Positions 65-12,850 of a stretch of 12,850 nt of DNA are shown here, in pieces. The stretch lies in IMG/VR virus record IMGVR_UViG_2684622618_000017, one strand, 5' to 3'. The number at the start of each line of letters is the position of its first letter. Positions within the stretch are counted from its first letter, which is position 1. Origin of the DNA: a virus (Duplodnaviria; Heunggongvirae; Uroviricota; Caudoviricetes). Under the pieces are notes generated by a model. It searched no databases. It was not told the DNA's origin and was given only the letters and a program-made list of their open reading frames with translations. The translations under genes and the position numbers were made by a program.

Positions 65-3008
65 GTGAATATGGCAGTAAAGATTTCAGGTGTACTGAAA
101 GACGGCACAGGAAAACCGGTAGAGAACTGCACCATTCAACTGAAAGCCAGACGTAACAGCGCCACGGTGGTGGTGAACACGGTGGCCTCTGAAAATCCGG
201 ATGAAGCCGGTCGTTACAGCATGGACGTTGAGTACGGTCAGTACAGCGTNNNNNNNNNNNNNNNNNNNNNNNNNNNNNNNNNNNNNNNNNNNNNNNNNNT
301 CACATGCCGGGACCATCACCGTGTATGAAGATTCTCAACCCGGTACGCTGAATGATTTTCTTGGTGCCATGACTGAGGATGATGTCCGTCCGGAGGCACT
401 GCGCCGTTTTGAGCTGATGGTGGAAGAGGTGGCGCGTAACGCGTCCGCGGTGGCACAGAACACGGCAGCCGCGAAGAAGTCAGCCAGCGATGCCAGCACA
501 TCAGCCCGTGAGGCGGCAACCCATGCGACTGATGCTGCGGACTCAGCACGCGCAGCCAGCACGTCAGCCGGACAGGCCGCGTCGTCGGCTCAGTCAGCGT
601 CTTCCAGCGCAGGAACGGCATCAACAAAGGCTACTGAAGCATCAAAAAGTGCTGCCGCTGCAGAGTCCTCAAAAAGCGCGGCGGCTACCAGTGCCGGTGC
701 GGCGAAAACGTCAGAAACGAATGCGGCAGTGTCACAACAATCAGCCGCCACTTCTGCATCCACCGCGACCACGAAAGCGTCAGAAGCTGCCTCCTCAGCC
801 AGGGATGCGTCGGCTTCAAAAGAGGCGGCAAAATCATCAGAAACGAGCGCAGCCTCGAGCGCCAGTAGTGCAGCCTCCTCGGCAACGGCGGCAGGCAATT
901 CCGCGAAGGCGGCCAAAACGTCTGAGACAAACGCTAAGTCCTCTGAAACGGCAGCAGAACAGAGTGCCTCCGCAGCAGCAGGCTCAAAAACAGCGGCTGC
1001 ATTATCTGCCAGTGCCGCGTCAACAAGTGCCGGGCAGGCCTCAGCCAGTGCCACCGCCGCCGGAAAATCGGCAGAAAGTGCCGCATCGTCTGCTTCAACA
1101 GCCACAACGAAGGCTGGCGAAGCCACTGAACAGGCCAGCGCAGCAGCGAGTTCTGCTTCCGCAGCGAAGACATCCGAAACGAACGCGAAAGCGTCGGAAA
1201 CCAGCGCAGAATCCTCAAAAACGGCTGCCGCATCGTCAGCCAGTTCGGCGGCGTCATCGGCATCATCTGCGTCTGCTTCAAAAGATGAGGCGACCAGACA
1301 AGCGTCAGCAGCGAAGAGCAGCGCCACGACGGCATCCACGAAGGCGACAGAGGCAGCTGGTAGTGCGACGGCAGCAGCTCAGAGCAAAAGTACGGCGGAA
1401 TCTGCAGCAACGCGCGCTGAGACAGCGGCAAAACGGGCAGAGGATATTGCATCCGCCGTGGCGCTTGAGGATGCGAGCACGACGAAAAAGGGGATAGTAC
1501 AGCTCAGCAGTGCGACTAACAGCACTTCCGAGTCACTGGCGGCAACGCCAAAAGCCGTTAAGGCCGCGTATGAGCTGGCTAACGGGAAATACACCGCACA
1601 GGATGCAACGACAGCACAGAAAGGGATAGTTCAGCTTAGCAACGCGACCAACAGCACATCTGAAATGCTGGCGGCAACGCCAAAGTCGGTAAAGGCAGCC
1701 TATGACCTTGCTAACGGGAAATATACTGCTCAGGACGCTACGACAGCACAAAAAGGAATTGTCCAGCTCAGTAGTGCAACCAACAGCGCATCTGAAACGC
1801 TTGCCGCGACACCGAAAGCAGTGAAAGCAGCTAATGATAATGCGAATGGTCGGGTACCTTCTGCCCGTAAGGTGAATGGTAAGGCGCTTTCATCGGATAT
1901 AACACTGACGCCGAAAGATATTGGTACGCTTAACTCAACAACAATGTCATTCAGCGGTGGTGCTGGTTGGTTCAAATTAGCAACGGTAACCATGCCACAG
2001 GCGAGTTCTGTTGTTTCAATTACGTTGATTGGTGGCGCGGGATTTAACGTGGGGTCACCTCAACAGGCAGGTATATCTGAACTTGTTTTGCGTGCAGGTA
2101 ATGGTAATCCGAAGGGGATTACTGGTGCTTTATGGCAGCGCACATCGACAGGGTTTACAAATTTTGCCTGGGTCAATACATCTGGTGATACTTACGATAT
2201 TTACGTTGCAATCGGAAATTATGCGACTGGTGTAAATATTCAATGGGATTATACCAGTAATGCCAGCGTGACGATTCATACGTCACCAGCATATTCTGCT
2301 AATAAGCCGGAAGGGTTAACGGACGGTACAGTTTATTCACTCTATACGCCATCAGAGCAGTTTTATCCGCCTGGCGCACCAATCCCGTGGCCATCAGATA
2401 CCGTTCCGTCTGGCTATGCCCTGATGCAGGGGCAGACTTTTGACAAATCTGCATACCCGAAACTTGCAGCCGCTTATCCGTCAGGCGTGATCCCTGATAT
2501 GCGTGGCTGGACGATTAAGGGCAAACCTGCCAGTGGTCGGGCCGTATTGTCTCAGGAACAGGACGGCATTAAATCGCACACCCACAGCGCCAGCGCATCC
2601 AGTACGGATTTGGGGACGAAAACCACATCGTCGTTTGATTACGGCACTAAATCCACGAATAACACCGGGGCGCACACGCACAGTGTGAGCGGTACAGCCG
2701 CAAGTGCCGGAAACCATACTCATAGTGTCACAGGCGCATCAGCAGTCAGCCAGTGGTCACAAAATGGGTCAGTACATAAGGTAGTGTCTGCGGCCAGTGT
2801 GAATACAAGTGCTGCAGGAGCGCACACTCATAGTGTCAGCGGCACAGCTGCATCTGCAGGTGCTCACGCACATACTGTCGGTATTGGTGCTCATACGCAC
2901 TCTGTTGCGATTGGCTCACATGGACACACCATCACCGTTAACGCTGCGGGTAACGCGGAAAACACTGTCAAAAACATCGCATTTAACTACATTGTGAGGC
3001 TTGCATAA
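65..3008 (+). CDS. stf: Side tail fibre protein, lambda Stf / Rac StfR-like; interrupted by N-run 250-299, which shifts the apparent frame
   Basis: N-terminus [17 protein letters not shown]...[12 protein letters not shown] and ...[20 protein letters not shown] match the lambda/Rac Stf N-terminus from memory. Long Ala/Ser/Thr-rich low-complexity region, three tandem 44-aa [15 protein letters not shown]-type repeats, His-rich GAHTHS repeats and a C-terminal [11 protein letters not shown] as in lambda Stf. Track ORFs 65..328 and 201..3008 are one gene split by the non-length-preserving gap. Confidence 0.88.
250..299. other. Run of 50 N (assembly gap or mask) inside stf; not length-preserving
   Basis: Flanking codons are in different frames. 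By comparison with lambda Stf about 28 nt would be expected here. Confidence 0.9.
1488..1851 (+). repeat. About 2.75 tandem copies of a 132-bp (44-aa) repeat inside stf
   Basis: [44 protein letters not shown] repeated with few substitutions at about 1488, 1620 and 1752; the same motif is shared by lambda Stf and P2 gpH. Confidence 0.8.
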
Positions 3009-3875
3009 TGGCATTCAGAATGAGTGAACAACCACGGACCATAAAAATTTATAATCTGCTGACCGGAACTAATGAATTTATTGGTGAAGGTGACGCATAT
3101 ATTCCGCCTCATACAGGTCTGCCAGCAAACAGTACCTATATTGCACCGCCAGATATTCCGGCTGGCTTCGTGGCTGTTTTCAACAGTGATGAGTCATCGT
3201 GGCATCTCGTTGAAGATCATCGGGGTAAAACGGTTTATGACGTGGCTTCCGGCGACGCGTTATTTATTTCTGAACTCGGCTCATTACCGGAAAATGTTAC
3301 CTGGTTATCGCCGGAAGGGGAGTTTCAGAAGTGGAACGGCACAGCCTGGGTGAAAGATGCAGAAGCAGAAAAACTGTTCCGGATCCGGGAGGCGGAAGAA
3401 ACAAAAAACAGCCTGATGCAGGTAGCCAGTGAGCATATTGCGCCACTTCAGGATGCNNNNNNNNNNNNNNNNNNNNNNNNNNNNNNNNNNNNNNNNNNNN
3501 NNNNNNCATCGGGGTAAAACGGTTTATGACGTGGCTTCCGGCGACGCGTTATTTATTTCTGAACTCGGTCCGTTACCGGAAAATGTTACCTGGTTGTCGC
3601 CGGATGGAGAGTGTCAGAAGTGGAACGGCACATCCTGGGCGAAAGATGCAGAAGCAGAAAAACTGTTTCGGGTACGGGAGGCAGAAGAAACAAAAAACAG
3701 CCTGATGCAGGTAGCCAGTGAGCATATTGCGCCACTTCAGGATGCCGTAGATTTGGATATTGCGACGGAGGAAGAGGCATCGTTACTGGCTGCATGGAAG
3801 ACATATCGGGTATTGTTGAATCGTGTTGATACAACAGTAGCAGCGGATGTTGAGTGGCCAGTCGCCCCACAATAA
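3008..3875 (+). CDS. tfa: Tail fibre assembly protein, lambda Tfa-like; interrupted by N-run 3457-3506 with duplicated flanks
   Basis: [34 protein letters not shown]... and C-terminal ...[27 protein letters not shown] match lambda Tfa from memory. ATG overlaps the stf stop (TAATG at 3006-3010). Confidence 0.85.
3218..3745 (+). repeat. Direct repeat: 3218-3456 and 3507-3745 (239 bp each, roughly 13 mismatches) flanking the gap
   Basis: Both copies start catcggggtaaaacggtttatgacgtggc and end gcgccacttcaggatgc; they differ at scattered positions, some changing amino acids (for example [16 protein letters not shown] versus [16 protein letters not shown]). Confidence 0.85.
3457..3506. other. Run of 50 N (assembly gap or mask) inside tfa
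   Basis: N-run flanked by a 239-bp direct repeat at about 94-95% identity. Confidence 0.9.
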
Positions 3876-3883
3876 AAAGAAAA

Positions 3884-3909
3884 AGCCATCGACAGAAATA
3901 TCGATGGCT
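3884..3909. terminator. Bidirectional rho-independent terminator between convergent tfa and the acetyltransferase gene
   Basis: Inverted repeat agccatcga / tcgatggct with an 8-nt loop, A-tract upstream and T-rich sequence downstream; on the - strand the hairpin is followed by ttttcttttt. Confidence 0.7.
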
Positions 3910-5148: not shown

Positions 5149-7961
5149 TCAATCTTTATCGTAAAAACTGCCACGCCTGGCACGGGCGCGCCGTTCCATT
5201 TCTGCCCTGACCATTTCGCCGACCAGTTTCGCCAGTTCGCGGGGATTCTGCGTAACAACGTTATGCAGATGAACATGAATTTCACCGCCAAATCCGGAGG
5301 CAACAGGCTCCCGGTTACGGGAAGTTGCAGGAACTGATGCCACTGGCGATCGTATGGCCTCCACCACCGGGCGGGAGCTGGCCGCAACAACAGGGACCAG
5401 CGCCGGAGGCAGCGGAGCCGGGACCACGGGTGTGATATTAATTGCGGGGGCAGGCTTACTGACCTGCGCAATCTTCCGCTCCTGCCACTCCCCACGAACA
5501 GCAAGTGCGCGGGGCAGGTTCTTAAAGACAATATCGCCGGGGCCAATGCGTTTTTTTGTCTCATCAACCAGCTTACCTGTGTTATCAGCAATTTTGCTGA
5601 GTCTGCGTAGCGTGCCGGTATTGCTGTCTGTGAGAGGTTTGTTGTCTTTGGGTTTATCATCTCCGGTGCCATTGCTATTTCCCGCAGACTTCGGCGGATT
5701 GATTTTCGCAATGTCTCCCTGAAACAGAGCAACCTTGTCCTGAAGAATGGCCGCACGTTGTGCGTCTTCGATTTTCTTGCGCGCCCTTTCCGCTTCATCC
5801 GGAAGCACACCGAGTTTTTCAAGTATCCACGCCAGCGTATCCAGCAACATTTTTGCAGGCGTCAGAACAAGCTGTAACGCACCACCAAGAACGTTACCGA
5901 ATACCTCGCCAGCACTGGTACATTTATCCAGCGTTTCCTTGCTGGACTCCATCGGTGACAGCAGCGATTTAAACCAGTTAAACACCTGGCTGAACCGCTT
6001 CCGATTACGTCAAAAACAGGGCCAAACCGTTCAAAGGTGTCGCGCAACGGGGTCAGCCTTTCCATAATCCCGCTGAACACCCCGGCAAAGAAAGCCCTGA
6101 TAGGATCCCAGTATTTCCAGATAAGAACGGCAGCTCCGGCAAGCGCAGCCACGATAAGACCAACCGGACTGAACAACGCCCCGATAACGCCTCCCAGTAA
6201 AGAAACGGAACCCGTCACCATTCCCCATAGCGCAGGTAACACCCTGACGACATTCATTGACCGGGTAAGAATGTCAAAACCAAGACGCAGGGTGGCCAGC
6301 TTCCCGTAAAGCACCCCAATAACCAGCGACAACGAGCCAATCGTTGCAGTCATTGCCAGCAACGCACCGCCTGCTATCAGTAGCTGGCGCGTCAGTACCG
6401 GATGGGCCTGCGCCAGCGAGGTGATTTTTTCAAGCACCCGCGTGAGCCACTGCGTGACAGAACGCAGCGGACCGTCAACCAGATCACTGATGCGAATACG
6501 AAGACCTTCCCATGCGCTGTCGAGATTTTTCAGGTCCCCATCAAGATTATCAGCCATTACTTTTGCGACGCGATCGGCCTCTCCCCTTGCCCCCTGCAAT
6601 TCTCTGGTCAGTTTTTGCAGCTCTCCTGAACCAGCCGCCGCAACAAGCGTCTGCAAACCAACGAACGCCTCTTCTCCGGCGATGTCCTTGAAGAAGGAGA
6701 CCTGGTCCACCTGTCCGTATTTTTGTGTCGCCTTATAGAGATCAAGCAGCACATCCTCCATCGGGCGCATTTTGCCTCTGGCGTCAGCAACTGACACCCC
6801 CAGCTCTTTCAGTGCATCAGCCGCAGCTTTTGGCGGTGATGCAAGGCGGGACAGACTTGCGCGCATGGCCGTGCCAGCATCGCTTCCGCGAAGACCATTA
6901 TTGGCAAGCATCCCGGCCATGGCCGCCGCTTCTTCAAGACTGATACCAAGTTTTGCGGCAACCGGACCGGTATACTTCATGGTTTCGCCCAGCGCGCGTA
7001 AATCAGTATTGGTCCGGGTAAATGCTGCTGTCAGCGTATCGCCCACCCGGTCCATTTGATCGGCTGTCAGGTTGAACTGTGTGAGGATATTGGAGCCTAT
7101 ATCAGCCGTCTCGCCGAGTTCGACGCCACCTGCCAGCGCCATATTAAGAACACCGGGCAATGCGGCCTGAATGGCCTGCGGAGTAAAACCAGCCATTGCC
7201 AGAAAGCTCTGCCCACTGGCGGCATCACTCGCAGTAAACTGTGTTTCAGCAAGTTTTAACGCCTGCTCACGCAGCGCCTTAAACTGCGGGCTGTTTTTGT
7301 CGATTCGCGTCAGTGCCTGAACGCGGGACATCTCTTTGCCGAACCCGATCGCAGGCTGCAAAAAACGCCCGGCAGCATAGCCGCCCGCCGCTGCCGCACC
7401 AATTGCCAGCGCACCACCTGTTTTCAGTTTTCCCGCGGTTTCCTGCGCGTGCGAATACCGCTCACGCGCCTGCGTTACACGCGCAAGCGCCTGCCGTTCG
7501 CGTTCAAGCTGGTTGTTGTATTGTTCGGTGCGTCTGATGGCCTGCTGAATGGTGTTATCGCTGCCTGTCAGGGAAATGCCGTGGCGTTTCAGCTCTCCGC
7601 CAAGTTCCCTCATTTTCTGAATTTCCCGTGTGCGCGATTCATTCAGGCGTTCAAGCCGGGTGCTTAACTGCTGCATCAGCTTTTGTTGTTTTTCGCTGAG
7701 CACTGTACCCGTGCGTTGTAACTGATTAAGGGCGTTAAGCTGGCGTCGTGCTTTCACGATGCCAGCATCCGCTTTACTGACAGCGTCGCGGGCGCGCTCA
7801 AATGATCGCGCCTGACGCTCGAGATTTTTGATCGCCCCCTGCGTTCGCTGGATGGAGTCACCAAACTGCCCCATCAGGCGGCGTGCGTTTTCGGCAGGTC
7901 GGGTCAGCCTGTCAACGGCGCTGAAAGCGACCCGGATATCAAGAGTCTTCATTGTCTGCAT
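5149..7961 (-). CDS. T: P2-like tail tape measure protein gpT; reading frame disrupted near 5985-6005 (frameshift mutation or sequence error)
   Basis: ORF 5862..7988 (long coiled-coil/Ala-Gly-rich tape-measure-like protein) ends in an implausible Cys/Trp/Arg-rich tail, while the overlapping ORF 5149..5985 in another frame continues with plausible sequence (FNWFKSLLSPMESSKETLDK...GSFYDKD). Start placed at the ATG at 7961 or 7952; the track start at 7988 is GTG. Confidence 0.75.
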
Positions 7962-8468
7962 TCCCGCTGCGAAGTGCCGCCCGCTCACGCCAGCTAACCA
8001 CTTCGCCGGGCGTCATCATGAAGATTTCGGCGGGCGACCAGTTAAAAATAACGGCAATATCTGCCACAAAGTCTTCTATGTGCTCAAAGCACACAACCGT
8101 GATCAGGCTTCCGTCGCCTGTTCGTTCTTCCCGCCAGAGTCCGCACCGCTCAAAAAATTTACGGCAACCACACATAACTGAATAAAGTCACGGGATGCCA
8201 TTTTTTTGATCGTCACTTCATCCAGTCGCGGTGATGTCACGCGTGACAGCAGCGTAAACATGGATTCCGCTTTCAGATTCAGCACATCAGACAGCGACAA
8301 ATCTCGCAGAGATCCAGCCTGCTCAATAGCCCCGGTGATCTCCACATACGTGATTTTTTCGCCGCCTCGCTCAATTGGTTGGGTAAGTTTTACACCACGC
8401 TCACTGGTTTCTTTCACAGTGTCAGTAACTACCGTGTTTTCGGTATCGATGTTTTTCGTCTCTTTCAT
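7939..8468 (-). CDS. E': gpE+E' fusion made by programmed -1 translational frameshift
   Basis: The -1 frame downstream of the slippery site is open to 7939 (FFERCGLWREERTGDGSLITVVCFEHIEDF...), matching track ORF 7939..8175; this is the arrangement known for P2 E/E'. Confidence 0.65.
8103..8468 (-). CDS. E: P2-like tail protein gpE
   Basis: Position between the tube gene and tape measure gene; good SD (aaggag) 6 nt upstream of the ATG at 8468; the frame contains the T6G slippery site near its 3' end. Confidence 0.75.
   Translation of the reverse strand: MKETKNIDTENTVVTDTVKETSERGVKLTQPIERGGEKITYVEITGAIEQAGSLRDLSLSDVLNLKAESMFTLLSRVTSPRLDEVTIKKMASRDFIQLCVVAVNFLSGADSGGKNEQATEA
8151..8157 (-). 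promoter_or_regulatory. Slippery heptamer T TTT TTG (mRNA sense) for the E/E' -1 frameshift
   Basis: Zero-frame codons AAT TTT TTG (N F L) read on the - strand across plus 8151-8159. Confidence 0.65.
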
Positions 8469-9035: not shown

Positions 9036-10219
9036 CAGGCACCTCCCAGCACCGCAAATGCGGGACCAAAGAATTCATCAGTAAACGACTGGTAAAGCTC
9101 CATGTCTTCCAGCGGAGGAACGGGCGTATATTTGTAGCGAATACGCACACGCCCCTGACGTAAATTCGTGGTGCTGTTATCCTCGATGTCATACCAGCAC
9201 TCCGCGCCAATCAGTTTCCCGGCAGTAACCAGTGAATCCAGTTTTGCCCTGATGGCACTGATAACATCCTTCACGTTCGCAGGTGTCAGTGGACTGTCGA
9301 TGGTTTCAAACTGCGCTTCCGCAATTGAATCAGCCAGCACCTGTGCGGTTCGGGTATACACCTCAAAGATGTAGGCGTTCGTTTCCGGTGTGCGGTTGCC
9401 CCAGAAGCGGAACCCGTTGCGACGAATAATGGTCGTGATTTCTTTGTTGTTGAGGCTGTTGGCATCACTGTCTTCGGCCTGCAACGACCAGAACACATGC
9501 CTCGACATCCCAAGCACATTTTTAACCGGAACGTTGGACAGCGATTTGTGCCAGCCCTGCTCATGGTCAATGTACGCACGAAGGCCGCACGCATAAGCAG
9601 GCGCGGGGAACGTTTCGTTTTTGCCACTTTTCAGGTTGTAGGCGATGAAGTCAGGCCATAAGAGCATCACCTCACGTTCGTTGAATTTCTGGCGGTAGGT
9701 AATCGCCTCAGCCATCGTGTTACAACCATGACATGTGGCATACACAAACGCGCGCAGTTTACCCGCAATCACGCACAGGGATTTTGTTACCGCCTCCGTG
9801 TCCAGCTCCGGCGCGGCCAGAATACGCGGACGGTATCCGATGCTTTCATCCTGCTCTGCAACAAGCAGCGCATACATCCCCGTATAGCTGCCGTCAGATT
9901 CAGAACCACCGATAACCAGTTGATCCTGCGTCTTACCGCCTTCTTCTTTGTGTTCAGCCACGCGAACGACGATCACTTTTGTGCTCACCTGGTCTGCGAT
10001 AGCCTTAAGCGCACGATAAAGCGTCCCCGTAGTCCCGCATTTTCCCAGCACGTCATTGACGCGGGTCAGCAGTGTGGGCTTGTTCAGCGGGAACAGCTCC
10101 GCGTCCGCATCATCTGCCGTTGCCACGATACCGATAACACTGGAATCAACATCATTAATCGCTGTTACCAGGTCGGTACTTTCCGTAACACGGGCACCAT
10201 GAAAACGAGTTTCACTCAT
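9035..10219 (-). CDS. FI: P2-like contractile tail sheath protein FI
   Basis: 394 aa; motifs ...FPLNKP...GTLYRALKAIADQ...KLRAFVYATCHGC...WPDF...DHEQGWHKSLSNV...GFRFWGNRT...YTRTAQVLADS...YKYTPVPPLEDM match P2 FI from memory. Confidence 0.9.
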   Translation of the reverse strand: MSETRFHGARVTESTDLVTAINDVDSSVIGIVATADDADAELFPLNKPTLLTRVNDVLGKCGTTGTLYRALKAIADQVSTKVIVVRVAEHKEEGGKTQDQLVIGGSESDGSYTGMYALLVAEQDESIGYRPRILAAPELDTEAVTKSLCVIAGKLRAFVYATCHGCNTMAEAITYRQKFNEREVMLLWPDFIAYNLKSGKNETFPAPAYACGLRAYIDHEQGWHKSLSNVPVKNVLGMSRHVFWSLQAEDSDANSLNNKEITTIIRRNGFRFWGNRTPETNAYIFEVYTRTAQVLADSIAEAQFETIDSPLTPANVKDVISAIRAKLDSLVTAGKLIGAECWYDIEDNSTTNLRQGRVRIRYKYTPVPPLEDMELYQSFTDEFFGPAFAVLGGA

Positions 10220-10376
10220 AGCTTCAGCCCCTTGTATCCGTTAAATGATTCGGCAACAATCATCACCCACCACGCGCGTAATCTCACCCCTGCGCCGTTC
10301 TCCCGCCACGGCGACAACAAAAAGCAGTAACCCCCTCCGCACGCACATGCGACCATGCCGCACAGGGAGGGAACAG

Positions 10377-10643
10377 ATGACCGACACCACCATGCAATTG
10401 CTCAGTCAGGGCACAGACCACGTGAAAGTGCCGGATTTTGATATTCTCGCGGAGGGTAAAACGCTGTCAGGCGTGGCAGAGCGCCTGATGAGCCTGTCAC
10501 TGACCGACAACCGGGGATTTGAGGCGGACCAGCTCACCATCACGCTGGATGATGCAGATGGTCAGTTGCAGCTACCGCCACGGGGCGCGCGCCTGACGGT
10601 TCTCATTGGCTGGAAAGGAGAACCGCTGACAGAAAAAGGCACT
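10377..10643 (+). pseudogene. D: 5' fragment (about 89 codons) of P2-like tail protein gpD (Phage_GPD / VgrG-like), truncated by IS30
   Basis: MTDTTMQLLSQGTDHVKVPDFDILAEGKTLSGVAERLMSLSLTDNRGFEADQLTITLDDADGQLQLPPRGARLTVLIGWKG carries the conserved LTDNRGFEADQL motif; SD gggaggg upstream; the ORF runs directly into the IS30 inverted repeat at 10644. Confidence 0.8.
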
Positions 10644-10669
10644 TGTAGATTCAATCTGTCAATGCAACA
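10644..10669. repeat. IS30 terminal inverted repeat (right end)
   Basis: 23 of 26 positions match the reverse complement of 11802-11827. Confidence 0.85.
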
Positions 10670-11765
10670 CCCCTTTCAATTATCTCTTTCGGTGTTTTGA
10701 ACTTCAGTGTCTTTCTCGGTCTGTTGTTTAGCTGAGCAGCAACCAGATCTTCATGTTGAGTATATTGGGCAAGACATGTCTTTTTAGGAAAGTACTGCCG
10801 AATTAGCCCATTTGTGTTCTCATTTGTTCCCCGCTGCCAAGGACTCTGAGGATCGCAGAAGTAAACTTTAACGCCGGTGCTGACAGTAAATTCTAGATGT
10901 CTGGCCAGTTCCATTCCTCTGTCCCATGTCAGTGATTTTCTGAGTTCTGACGGTAAACTCAGGAATTTGTCGGTAAGAGCCTGATTTACTGAGACAGAAT
11001 CTTTGCCCCTGAGTCTGAGGATGATCGTATAACGTGATTTTCGGTCTACAAGTGTGGCTATATGAGAGTTTTTTGTACCTGAGACTAAATCGCCCTCCCA
11101 ATGCCCTAGAGAGCGTCTGNNNNNNNNNNNNNNNNNNNNNNNNNNNNNNNNNNNNNNNNNNNNNNNNNNNNNNNGGCTACGAAAGTACAGCGTTTTATAA
11201 ATTGTCTCAGGTGATATTCGCAGCGTTTTTTGACGTGGTTTTGTTCGCCTTAACCATCCTGATATTTGCTCTGGAGACCATTTCATCTCCAGCTTTTCCA
11301 GAACAAGCTTTCGCAATGGTAAATTTTGATCCAGTAAGCACGGTTTTGGCCTTTTCGCCATTCTGTTGGCTCGGTTATTAGCATCAACAGCTTTGTAATA
11401 GCGTCTGCCCCGATTACGCNNNNNNNNNNNNNNNNNNNNNNNNNNNNNNNNNNNNNNNNNNNNNNNNNNCGATTACGCTGAACTTCACGTGAGATCGTCG
11501 AAGGACTGCGATTCAGCGCAGTAGCTATCGCACGAATGCTCATTTTGGCTGACAAACCAGCTCGTATCTCCTCGCGCTCAGACAGTGTCAGGTGAGCTAC
11601 AGCCCGCTTACGCTCATGGGGTTTTATGCCGCCAGTATCCCTTAACATAGTGAAGATCGTTCCGGGTTTTGAACCCAGGATATTCGCTATTTCACTGAAG
11701 CCTGTTCCGTTCTTCCATAGTTCAAAAACAGAGGCTTTTTCCTCTGCTGTAAATGTTCGTCTCAT
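10651..11765 (-). CDS. insI: IS30 transposase (DDE), interrupted by N-runs 11120-11174 and 11420-11469
   Basis: MRRTFTAEEKASVFELWKNGTGFSEIANILGSKPGTIFTMLRDTGGIKPHERKRAVAHLTLSEREEIRAGLS... and ...HWEGDLVSGTKNSHIATLVDRKSRYTIILRLRGKDSVSVNQALTDKF...QSPWQRGTNENTNGLIRQYFPK match IS30 Tnp from memory. Confidence 0.9.
11120..11174. other. Run of 55 N inside the IS30 transposase gene
   Basis: Roughly 148 nt of coding sequence (about 50 codons between ...YFRS and RRSLGHWEGD...) are replaced by 55 N. Confidence 0.9.
11420..11469. other. Run of 50 N inside the IS30 transposase gene, flanked by a duplicated 9-mer
   Basis: cgattacgc occurs on both sides; the flanking codons (...REVQRNR / RNRGRRYY...) show no coding sequence is actually missing. 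Confidence 0.9.
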
Positions 11766-11801
11766 TCAAAAAAACTCCGCAACCCCATGTTTTCACATAA
11801 C

Positions 11802-11827
11802 TGTTGCGTTGACCAATTGAATCTACA
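11802..11827. repeat. IS30 terminal inverted repeat (left end)
   Basis: Pairs with 10644-10669. Confidence 0.85.
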
Positions 11828-11841
11828 GTGGTCTGTTTTAA

Positions 11842-11937
11842 TATTTCTATTTCTATTTCTATTTCTATTTCTATTTCTATTTCTATTTCTATTTCTATTT
11901 CTATTTCTATTTCTATTTCTATTTCTATTTCTATTTG
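11842..11937. repeat. Perfect hexanucleotide microsatellite (TATTTC)15 plus one degenerate unit
   Basis: 15 consecutive exact tatttc units (11842-11931) then tatttg; begins 14 bp from the IS30 end, in an AT-rich intergenic region upstream of the HNH gene. Confidence 0.95.
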
Positions 11938-12130
11938 TTGTGATTTTTTCTTTAGTTCATGTATTTCGATTTGTTTCTGAATTATCGGGGGTAGTGTCTT
12001 CCCTTTTCCCTGAGGCTTATCATGCAGTTATTTTCGCCATCTTGGTATTGTGGAAATACCGACATCCATAGCTTTGGTGAGCTCTGTTCAGGTGGCCAAA
12101 TTCAGAAAACCATTACGGAGGAAGAAGGCG

Positions 12131-12697
12131 ATGGCTAAACCAGCGCGAAGACGATGTAACCGTAAAAGAGAAGATTTAACTGTTAAAAGGATATTTGAGT
12201 TACTAAGTTTCGATAAATCTACCGGGGTATTTAGATGGAAAGTTCCCACTCAGGGAAGGATAGCATTAAATAGTGTTGCTGGAGCTTTTGATTCCAACGG
12301 TTATTCAATGATCATGATAGATGGGCGTAGATATAAAACTCACGTCTTAGTTTTTTACATAACTCATAATCGTTGGCCTGCTGGTCAAATTGACCACGTT
12401 AATGGAATTAGGACCGACAATAGGCCAGAAAATTTAAGAGAATGCCTGCCAATAGAAAATTCAAGAAATATAAGGATCCGAAAGAATAGCAAATCAGGTT
12501 GCAGAGGGGTTACTTGGCACAAACGACAGAAAAAATGGAATGTTAGGCTAGGATTCCATGGCAAGAGTAAACACTTCGGATGCTTTGATGATCTGGAGTT
12601 AGCGGTACTAGTTGCTGAAGAAGCCCGAGATAAGTATTACGGTGATTTTTCCGGCAACGAAAGGAGCACTTATGCGAATCTATCGAAGGAAATGTAA
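12131..12697 (+). CDS. HNH homing-endonuclease-like protein with C-terminal AP2-type DNA-binding domain
   Basis: HNH signature ...[37 protein letters not shown] and AP2-like [54 protein letters not shown] ggaggaag upstream of the ATG at 12131. About 38% GC. The first 9 residues MAKPARRRC equal the lambda NinG N-terminus as recalled. Confidence 0.75.
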
Positions 12698-12850
12698 ATG
12701 TTGCAATGAATGGTTTATACCAAAATATCAAAATCAATATTGGTGTAATGAGATTTGTGGAACCAAGATAGCACTCGAACGACGAAGTAAAGAACGCGAA
12801 AAAGCGGAAAAGGCAGAAAAGGCAGCAGAGAAGAAACGACGACGAGAGGA
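12672..12850 (+). CDS. ninG: NinG/Rap-like protein, N-terminal part (runs off the window)
   Basis: [59 protein letters not shown] resembles the lambda NinG N-terminal zinc-ribbon region (…[28 protein letters not shown]…) from memory. SD aaggag 5 nt upstream; overlaps the 3' end of the HNH gene. Confidence 0.7.

Follow-up and report, generated by a model that had tools for sequence, protein, structure and literature searches.

A hexanucleotide repeat beside IS30 is the E. coli O157:H7 typing marker VNTR-9 and probably arose within an IS3-family orfA remnant

We identified a perfect TATTTC repeat near the right end of the window (the whole stretch of 12,850 nucleotides analysed here) as a known MLVA marker of E. 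coli O157:H7, VNTR-9 (also designated Vhec4, TR1 or O157-9), which is located in the defective lambdoid prophage Sp17. The array is polymorphic among isolates, occurs with the same flanks in sequences that lack IS30, and is bordered on both sides by sequence homologous to an IS3-family orfA. It is best explained as a near-neutral, slippage-prone hexanucleotide microsatellite in IS-derived junk DNA (probability about 0.85), and the alignment of its flanks makes it very probable that the marker was born by expansion of Glu-Ile codons in the leucine zipper of this orfA. As a discovery the tract matters little, since it was already known; its origin in the orfA zipper was not found stated in the MLVA literature examined and is a modestly new element. 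The features of the locus are listed below by window coordinates and strand, with the basis of each assignment in brackets.

10644-11827, minus strand: IS30, with the transposase gene on the minus strand and the IRL adjoining the array (Pfam HTH_38 on 11283-11765, genome annotations, segment mapping)
11585-11615, plus strand: PulseNet VNTR-9 reverse primer site, inside IS30 (exact single match; primer from PMC3321953, Table A1)
11693-11712, plus strand: Noller TR1 primer site, inside IS30 (exact single match; primer from PMC2246123, Table 2)
11828-12105, minus strand: decayed IS3-family (IS911-like) left-end remnant, consisting of an IRL fragment and an orfA pseudogene (blastn, alignment, translation, BLASTP, tblastn)
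11842-11936, no strand: VNTR-9/Vhec4/TR1/O157-9 array, (TATTTC)15 plus TATTT (Tandem Repeats Finder, regular-expression count, shuffles, minus-strand translation)
12009-12028, minus strand: the other Noller TR1 primer site (exact single match; primer from PMC2246123, Table 2)
12120-12146, minus strand: PulseNet VNTR-9 forward primer site, across the HNH start codon (exact single match; primer from PMC3321953, Table A1)
12131-12697, plus strand: HNH endonuclease gene, equivalent to ECs_3504 (Pfam HNH_3, E 5.6e-11; phrog_99; Sakai annotation)
12672-12850, plus strand: 5' part of ninG, equivalent to ECs_3503, running off the window (Pfam NinG, Sakai annotation)

Identity of the repeat with VNTR-9

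Tandem Repeats Finder described the segment 11842-11936 as a repeat of period 6 with 15.8 copies, 100% matches, no indels and the consensus TATTTC, and a regular-expression count gave 15 full units at 11842-11931 followed by a partial TATTT. A three-unit TATTTC probe had 13 matches in the window and none in 200 dinucleotide-preserving shuffles. The array is non-coding and has an A+T content of 83%; its minus strand is (GAAATA)n, which translates as (Glu-Ile)n in the frame of the orfA remnant. An earlier note on this DNA had placed the perfect 15-unit repeat at 11828-11940. The 15 perfect units were confirmed, and these coordinates also take in a 14-bp spacer and four bases past the array. The note correctly located the array 14 bp from the end of IS30 (IS30 ends at 11827 and the array starts at 11842) and upstream of the HNH and ninG genes (HNH at 12131-12697, Pfam HNH_3; ninG from 12672, Pfam NinG), the distance from the array to the HNH start being 194 bp.

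When positions 11700-12700 were used as a megablast query against 5,426 complete E. coli genomes, O157:H7 genomes matched at 99.9-100%. In strain Sakai the match was 100%; the region is annotated there as "prophage Sp17; lambda-like phage", and the array is flanked by a partial IS30 (ECs_3505) on one side and by the endonuclease gene ECs_3504 on the other. EDL933 also matched at 100% and had the same arrangement of IS30 fragment, array and HNH/ninG side. The TR1 and PulseNet VNTR-9 primer pairs are both convergent in the window and bracket the array, and in Sakai and EDL933 the published primers map to this locus and to no different one. Primers and synonymy were taken from later open-access papers (PMC2246123, PMC3321953 and PMC3768571). 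The locus was named Vhec4 (Lindstedt 2003), TR1 (Noller 2003) and O157-9 (Keys 2005); the equivalence of these names with VNTR-9 is given in Table 1 of PMC3321953 and Table 1 of PMC3768571, and the former paper places the locus at Z3935/Z3936. The TR1 primers of Noller are listed together with the repeat unit AAATAG (PMC2246123, Table 2). Reverse-complementing TATTTC gives GAAATA, of which AAATAG is a rotation, and the published unit therefore agrees with that in the window. The exact bracketing primers, the shared unit and the position in Sp17 together identify the tract as the standard O157:H7 MLVA locus, a routine PulseNet/MLVA marker for O157:H7 since 2003 whose usefulness comes from its variability. 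The earlier note had not recognised the tract as a standard MLVA marker.

Copy-number variation of the array

The array spans 5-22 units in complete E. coli genomes and 4-16 units in IMG/VR contigs. Places matched by the 1001-bp query were 959, 965, 1001, 1037 or 1043 bp long, i.e., they differed in steps of 6. A second query, which began at the IS30 boundary, was compared with 31 evenly sampled genomes; the alignment starts (1, 15, 21, 27 and so on up to 75) corresponded to 5 to at least 15 units, and the commonest count in this sample was 9-10 units. Direct counts gave 15 units in the window, 9 in Sakai, 10 in EDL933, 17 in phage SH2026Stx1 and 7 in phage AU6Stx1. The O111:H8 strain 99.1145 had 13 units and a chicken isolate had 5; in O103 strain RM8385, variant units came after 8 regular ones. 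Z1830, Z1831 and Z1832, O157:H7 genomes from UK cattle that are nearly identical to one another, contained 21, 22 and 21 units, respectively. Alleles of 15 units, as in the window, were present in finished genomes, among them those of TW14359 and strains 108, 122 and 123, which gave 100% one-piece matches. The array was also found in each of the 35 IMG/VR contigs that contained the right flank, with 4-16 pure units and, in some contigs, single variant units (TGTTTC, CATTTC, TACTTC or TAATTC).

These counts may be compared with the published range for VNTR-9, which is 6-23 repeats in 15 alleles, with a diversity index of 0.90 that is the highest of the panel (PMC3321953). During serial passage, Vhec4 changed at a rate of 1.3e-4 mutations per generation, and repeat changes across the loci of that study involved complete units and were ascribed by its authors to slipped-strand mispairing (PMC3777172). 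The literature and the whole-unit changes point to slippage as the probable mechanism of unit change. Hypervariability of the slipped-strand type, which the earlier note had suggested, is thus borne out by unit numbers that differ among isolates and change in serial passage (PMC3777172), and its proposed comparison across isolates revealed a variable and not an invariant repeat number.

No unexpanded copy of the surrounding IS remnant was detected: every flank-carrying copy, in the 35 IMG/VR contigs and in all sampled genomes, had at least 4 pure units. Given this minimum in every copy examined, it is possible that some constraint retains an array. When a 20-mer of the right flank was searched for in GTDB species representatives, only six matches were obtained, all in unrelated MAGs and none accompanied by the array, and these look like chance matches.

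An IS3-family orfA remnant around the array

A sensitive blastn comparison of the IS30-free intergenic region with phages revealed that both array flanks are ~73% identical to IS911 of Shigella phages Sf6 and SfII. In the alignment, IS911 has CCTTTTTTAA-TATTTC-ATTCTC-CATTTC-AATGCGTTGTAG at the site homologous to the array, and its minus strand there, CGC ATT GAA ATG GAG AAT GAA ATA TTA AAA AAG, encodes the leucine-zipper end of OrfA. The sequence A AAA AAG that follows the zipper end is the programmed -1 frameshift site (A6G) of IS911. The minus-strand translation of the window reads ...TKAMDVGISTIPRWRK*LHDKPQGKGKTLPPIIQKQIEIHELKKKSQQ(IE)nILKQT, the asterisk marking the in-frame stop, and its part KAMDVGISTIPRWRK*LHDKPQGKGKTLPPIIQKQIEIHELKKKSQQ(IE)nILKQT was compared with IS911 OrfA; in intact phages, the translation of the remnant continues ...TTFLMSYSLNN. 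The conceptual orfA remnant was 53% identical to IS911 OrfA over 75 amino acids (BLASTP, E 3e-20), and annotated IS3-family transposases were matched in >2,000 plasmid records with up to 60% identity (tblastn, E 1e-16). The 80-aa conceptual translation had no Pfam transposase HTH match, and the IS3 assignment is therefore based on similarity in pairwise and tblastn comparisons. The searches turned up no intact parent IS above 60% amino-acid identity.

The orfA homologue occupies the position expected for an IS3-family element relative to the terminal inverted repeat, and part of the IRL survives as CTCTGTTCAGGTGGCCAAATTCAG at ~12084-12105 (aligned to IS911). The N-terminal HTH region of the remnant is largely deleted, a gap of ~98 columns relative to IS911 removes the start of orfA, and an in-frame stop (TAA) is present. 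The 14-bp spacer between IS30 and the array (11828-11841) holds a mutated A6G frameshift site, TTAAAACAG, whose slippery sequence is now AAAACAG. The orfB gene is absent from the window; intact phages retain a short orfB fragment, which IS30 has cut off in O157:H7. An intact orfA/orfB pair with an A6G -1 frameshift site was not found in the window, and the deleted start, the in-frame TAA, the mutated slippery site and the missing orfB indicate a dead remnant that is not able to transpose.

Close to its right end, the array of two IMG/VR contigs (L037 and L043) included a CATTTC unit, identical to the IS911 hexamer at the homologous position (Glu-Met codons). This unit could be a relic of the ancestral sequence, or the product of a point mutation that matches IS911 by coincidence.

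Insertion of IS30 and proposed origin of the array

The end sequence of IS30 at 11827 is identical to that in Sakai and EDL933. The Stx1-converting phages SH2026Stx1 and AU6Stx1 contain the same array and the same 14-bp left spacer without IS30, as do prophages of O111:H8, O103 and the chicken isolate. Past the spacer, the IS30-free copies continue ...GACATCAGGAATGTG where O157:H7 has IS30. Of the IMG/VR contigs with the array, 32 of 35 were IS30-free. The suggestion that the tract is a slippage product stimulated by the neighbouring IS is refuted by the presence of the same array and flanks in IS30-free Stx1 phages, non-O157 prophages and these 32 contigs. Because the array with the same flanks exists without IS30, we infer that IS30 inserted beside a pre-existing array in the O157:H7 Sp17 lineage, i.e., that the array came first and IS30 later.

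One primer of TR1 and one of the PulseNet VNTR-9 pair lie inside IS30, and neither pair would therefore amplify this array from Stx1 phages or non-O157 STEC. A null-allele frequency of 31.7% was reported for the VNTR-9 locus (PMC3321953), and the primer inside IS30 could contribute to these frequent null alleles.

We propose the following origin for the marker. The imperfectly 6-periodic zipper codons (in IS911, ATT GAA ATG GAG AAT GAA ATA) would have given rise to a few perfect GAAATA units, and these Glu-Ile units would then have expanded by slippage just upstream of the former A6G site. Whole 6-bp units would be gained and lost by slipped-strand mispairing, at roughly 1e-4 per generation. 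The insertion of IS30 at a distance of 14 bp would be a later event of the O157:H7 Sp17 lineage, and this IS30 copy serves the standard MLVA primers as one anchor. An array of this kind in an IS3-family pseudogene would be a clear example of a bacterial VNTR derived from a cryptically periodic coiled-coil coding segment. We also infer that the array is close to neutral.

Neighbouring genes

Ordinary lambdoid ninF/ninG junction sequence begins at 12114, just past the IRL of the remnant, and matches over 12114-12159. The HNH ORF shares its opening 9 codons with NinG (MAKPARRRC, the same as in NinG of phage HK544), and ninG restarts at 12672 with a different N-terminus (MRIYRRKCK...); the NinG of Sakai is 90% identical to that of HK544. 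From the sequence, a homing-type HNH gene appears to have been inserted at the 5' end of ninG while sparing the gene itself.

An ORF of 590 amino acids, absent from the window, lies between ninE and the IS remnant in phage SH2026Stx1 (1400-3172, minus strand) and also in L003, L005 and L006, which are IS30-free. This ORF and the dead orfA point in the same direction, and in intact phages the ORF starts ~310 bp from the array. Neither Pfam nor PADLOC gave a match to this gene, and its sole match was phrog_9230, whose function is unassigned in PHROG. In the O111:H8 strain 99.1145 the gene is split into two ORFs.

Possible functions of the array

An array that is hypervariable, A+T-rich and non-coding, and that is kept in every copy of the locus examined, might be a contingency (phase-variation) locus. 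In such a locus the unit number would alter regulatory spacing or phasing and so tune HNH/ninG or, in intact phages, where the array lies between divergently oriented genes, the 590-aa gene. Across many E. coli serotypes, the examined copies in Stx1 and lambdoid prophages all retain at least 4 units. We nevertheless regard this function as improbable. A consensus scan, which is crude and gives a weak result, detected no sigma-70-like site in 11600-12300 and none in 3000-3900 of the IS30-free phage SH2026Stx1, as compared with averages of 2.1 and 3.5 promoter-like sites in shuffled sequences of the two regions. None of the six rotations of the unit fits the -10-like pattern TAnnnT on either strand (TATTTC or GAAATA), and the array, which is 24-130 bp long across copies, is too long for the space between -35 and -10. 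The helix turns by ~200 degrees with each unit, yet odd and even unit counts were both common among the 31 sampled genomes and the 35 IMG/VR contigs. In addition, the O157:H7 copy lies in a defective prophage beside a truncated IS30, and no phenotype is reported in the MLVA literature examined.

Transcription of the nin region in lambdoid phages starts at PR and depends on N antitermination. HNH and ninG, read in this way, need no promoter of their own, which further argues against a contingency function. The earlier idea that the repeat tunes promoter geometry or expression of HNH/ninG is thus unsupported: the crude scan found no sigma-70-like site, the unit offers no TAnnnT, and the array is too long and lies 194 bp away inside an IS pseudogene. 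Terminator scans of the window and of the IS30-free phage context gave only one weak terminator-like hairpin, in two overlapping reports at 11987-12002/12003, and an Rfam search of the whole window at the gathering threshold had no match at the array locus.

A broader version, which we consider just as doubtful, is that the array, being A+T-rich and variable in length, serves for example as a spacer or as a tract to which nucleoid proteins bind, and modulates nin-Q transcription or the 590-aa gene (phrog_9230). If this were true, changes in unit number could shift the timing of late-gene or Shiga-toxin expression, and a standard typing marker would be a phage contingency locus.

It is very unlikely that the array encodes a variable peptide through the small plus-strand ORF MSYHVVEKLFSEYDIRNVVVCFN(IS)nVCCGFFFSSCISICF. 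In favour of such a peptide, a 6-bp unit never shifts the reading frame, intact phages have the ORF open, PGAP annotates it as a hypothetical protein in some non-O157 genomes (L004 and L005), and the locus is listed by Jenke et al. as "inside ORF Z3935/Z3936". Against it, the ORF runs antisense to a transposase pseudogene that is recognisable as such and accounts for the sequence, has no Shine-Dalgarno-like sequence before its ATG, is omitted from most annotations and loses its start to IS30 in O157:H7. This (Ile-Ser)n ORF, of which the window contains a truncated version (11828-11980), was rejected as spurious, with no PHROG family and no ribosome-binding site.

Assembly and other features of the window

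The window is a scaffolded draft. Two runs of N inside IS30 (11120-11174 and 11420-11469) are scaffold gaps: 55 N stand in for 148 bp of IS30, and the segments on either side of the 50 N have a 9-bp overlap in Sakai. Segment 11470-11827 agrees exactly with IS30 as truncated in Sp17 but not with the IS30 copy associated with gpD. Positions 9600-12850 were present in one piece in none of the 5,426 complete E. coli genomes, and in strain 10671 a distance of ~1 Mb separates the P2-like gpD::IS30 junction from the IS30-VNTR junction, the two being distinct loci inverted relative to each other. The adjacency of gpD::IS30 and the VNTR in the window (junction 10643/10644) is probably a scaffolding join through IS30 and less likely a rare ~1-Mb inversion between inverted IS30 copies. 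Either reading leaves the array and its right flank unaffected.

A draft with N gaps in IS30, and an adjacency seen in no finished genome, could suggest that the tract or its length is itself a product of mis-assembly, as the earlier note had allowed. The chance of this is very small. Finished genomes, some with 15-unit alleles, contain an identical array with identical flanks on both sides, and the locus has been PCR-amplified and sized in several independent MLVA studies. The tract is therefore real, with the exact count of 15 resting on the draft scaffold. More generally, short-read scaffolds near this locus can be mis-joined through IS30.

Several additional features were observed in the P2-like part of the window. 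The Rfam family IS009 (RF02111) matched 3640-3838 on the plus strand with 191 bits (gathering score 117), inside the tail-fibre-assembly region of the P2-like prophage, where it overlaps a Caudo_TAP ORF (3429-3875). A 132-bp tandem repeat (1486-1831, plus strand, 2.6 copies, 78% matches) is present inside a 935-aa tail-fibre gene (201-3008) and corresponds to the Phage_fiber_2 repeats of Pfam. The tape-measure region (5149-7988, minus strand) consists of two overlapping ORFs, one at 5862-7988 with a PhageMin_Tail domain and one at 5149-5985 with no family, and the homologous gene in strain 10671 is annotated as frameshifted. The split or frameshifted tape-measure gene suggests that the P2-like prophage is likely defective, consistent with the interruption of gpD by IS30.

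Comparison with known systems

The simple-sequence contingency loci of Haemophilus and Neisseria resemble this array in slipped-strand mispairing and in a reversible, hypervariable copy number. However, the repeats in those loci lie between -35 and -10 or in a reading frame whose shift turns a gene off, whereas here the 6-bp unit leaves the frame unchanged, the length of the array far exceeds that of a core-promoter spacer, and no gene is known to be switched.

OrfA of IS911 and of the IS3 family has an HTH and a leucine zipper and is associated with the A6G site. The flanks of the array are homologous to orfA (53% at the amino-acid level) and to part of the IRL, and the array occupies the zipper codons that adjoin the slippery site. 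In contrast to IS911, the remnant has lost its start, gained a stop, changed A6G to AAAACAG, and had its orfB reduced or cut off.

The window shares with VNTR-9 the unit, the primer sites and the position in Sp17 between the IS30 fragment and ECs_3504, and its 15 units fall within the published range of 6-23. The array itself shows no difference; the IS30 side differs, being joined across scaffold gaps to the P2-like gpD::IS30 locus. Other MLVA loci of O157:H7, namely VNTR-3, -17, -19, -25, -37 and O157-10, are likewise hexanucleotide repeats that gain and lose whole units at 1e-5 to 1e-3 per generation and share its typing scheme (PMC3777172, PMC3321953). They differ from VNTR-9 in unit sequence and location, several being inside annotated ORFs or on pO157, and O157-10 mutates approximately tenfold faster than VNTR-9.
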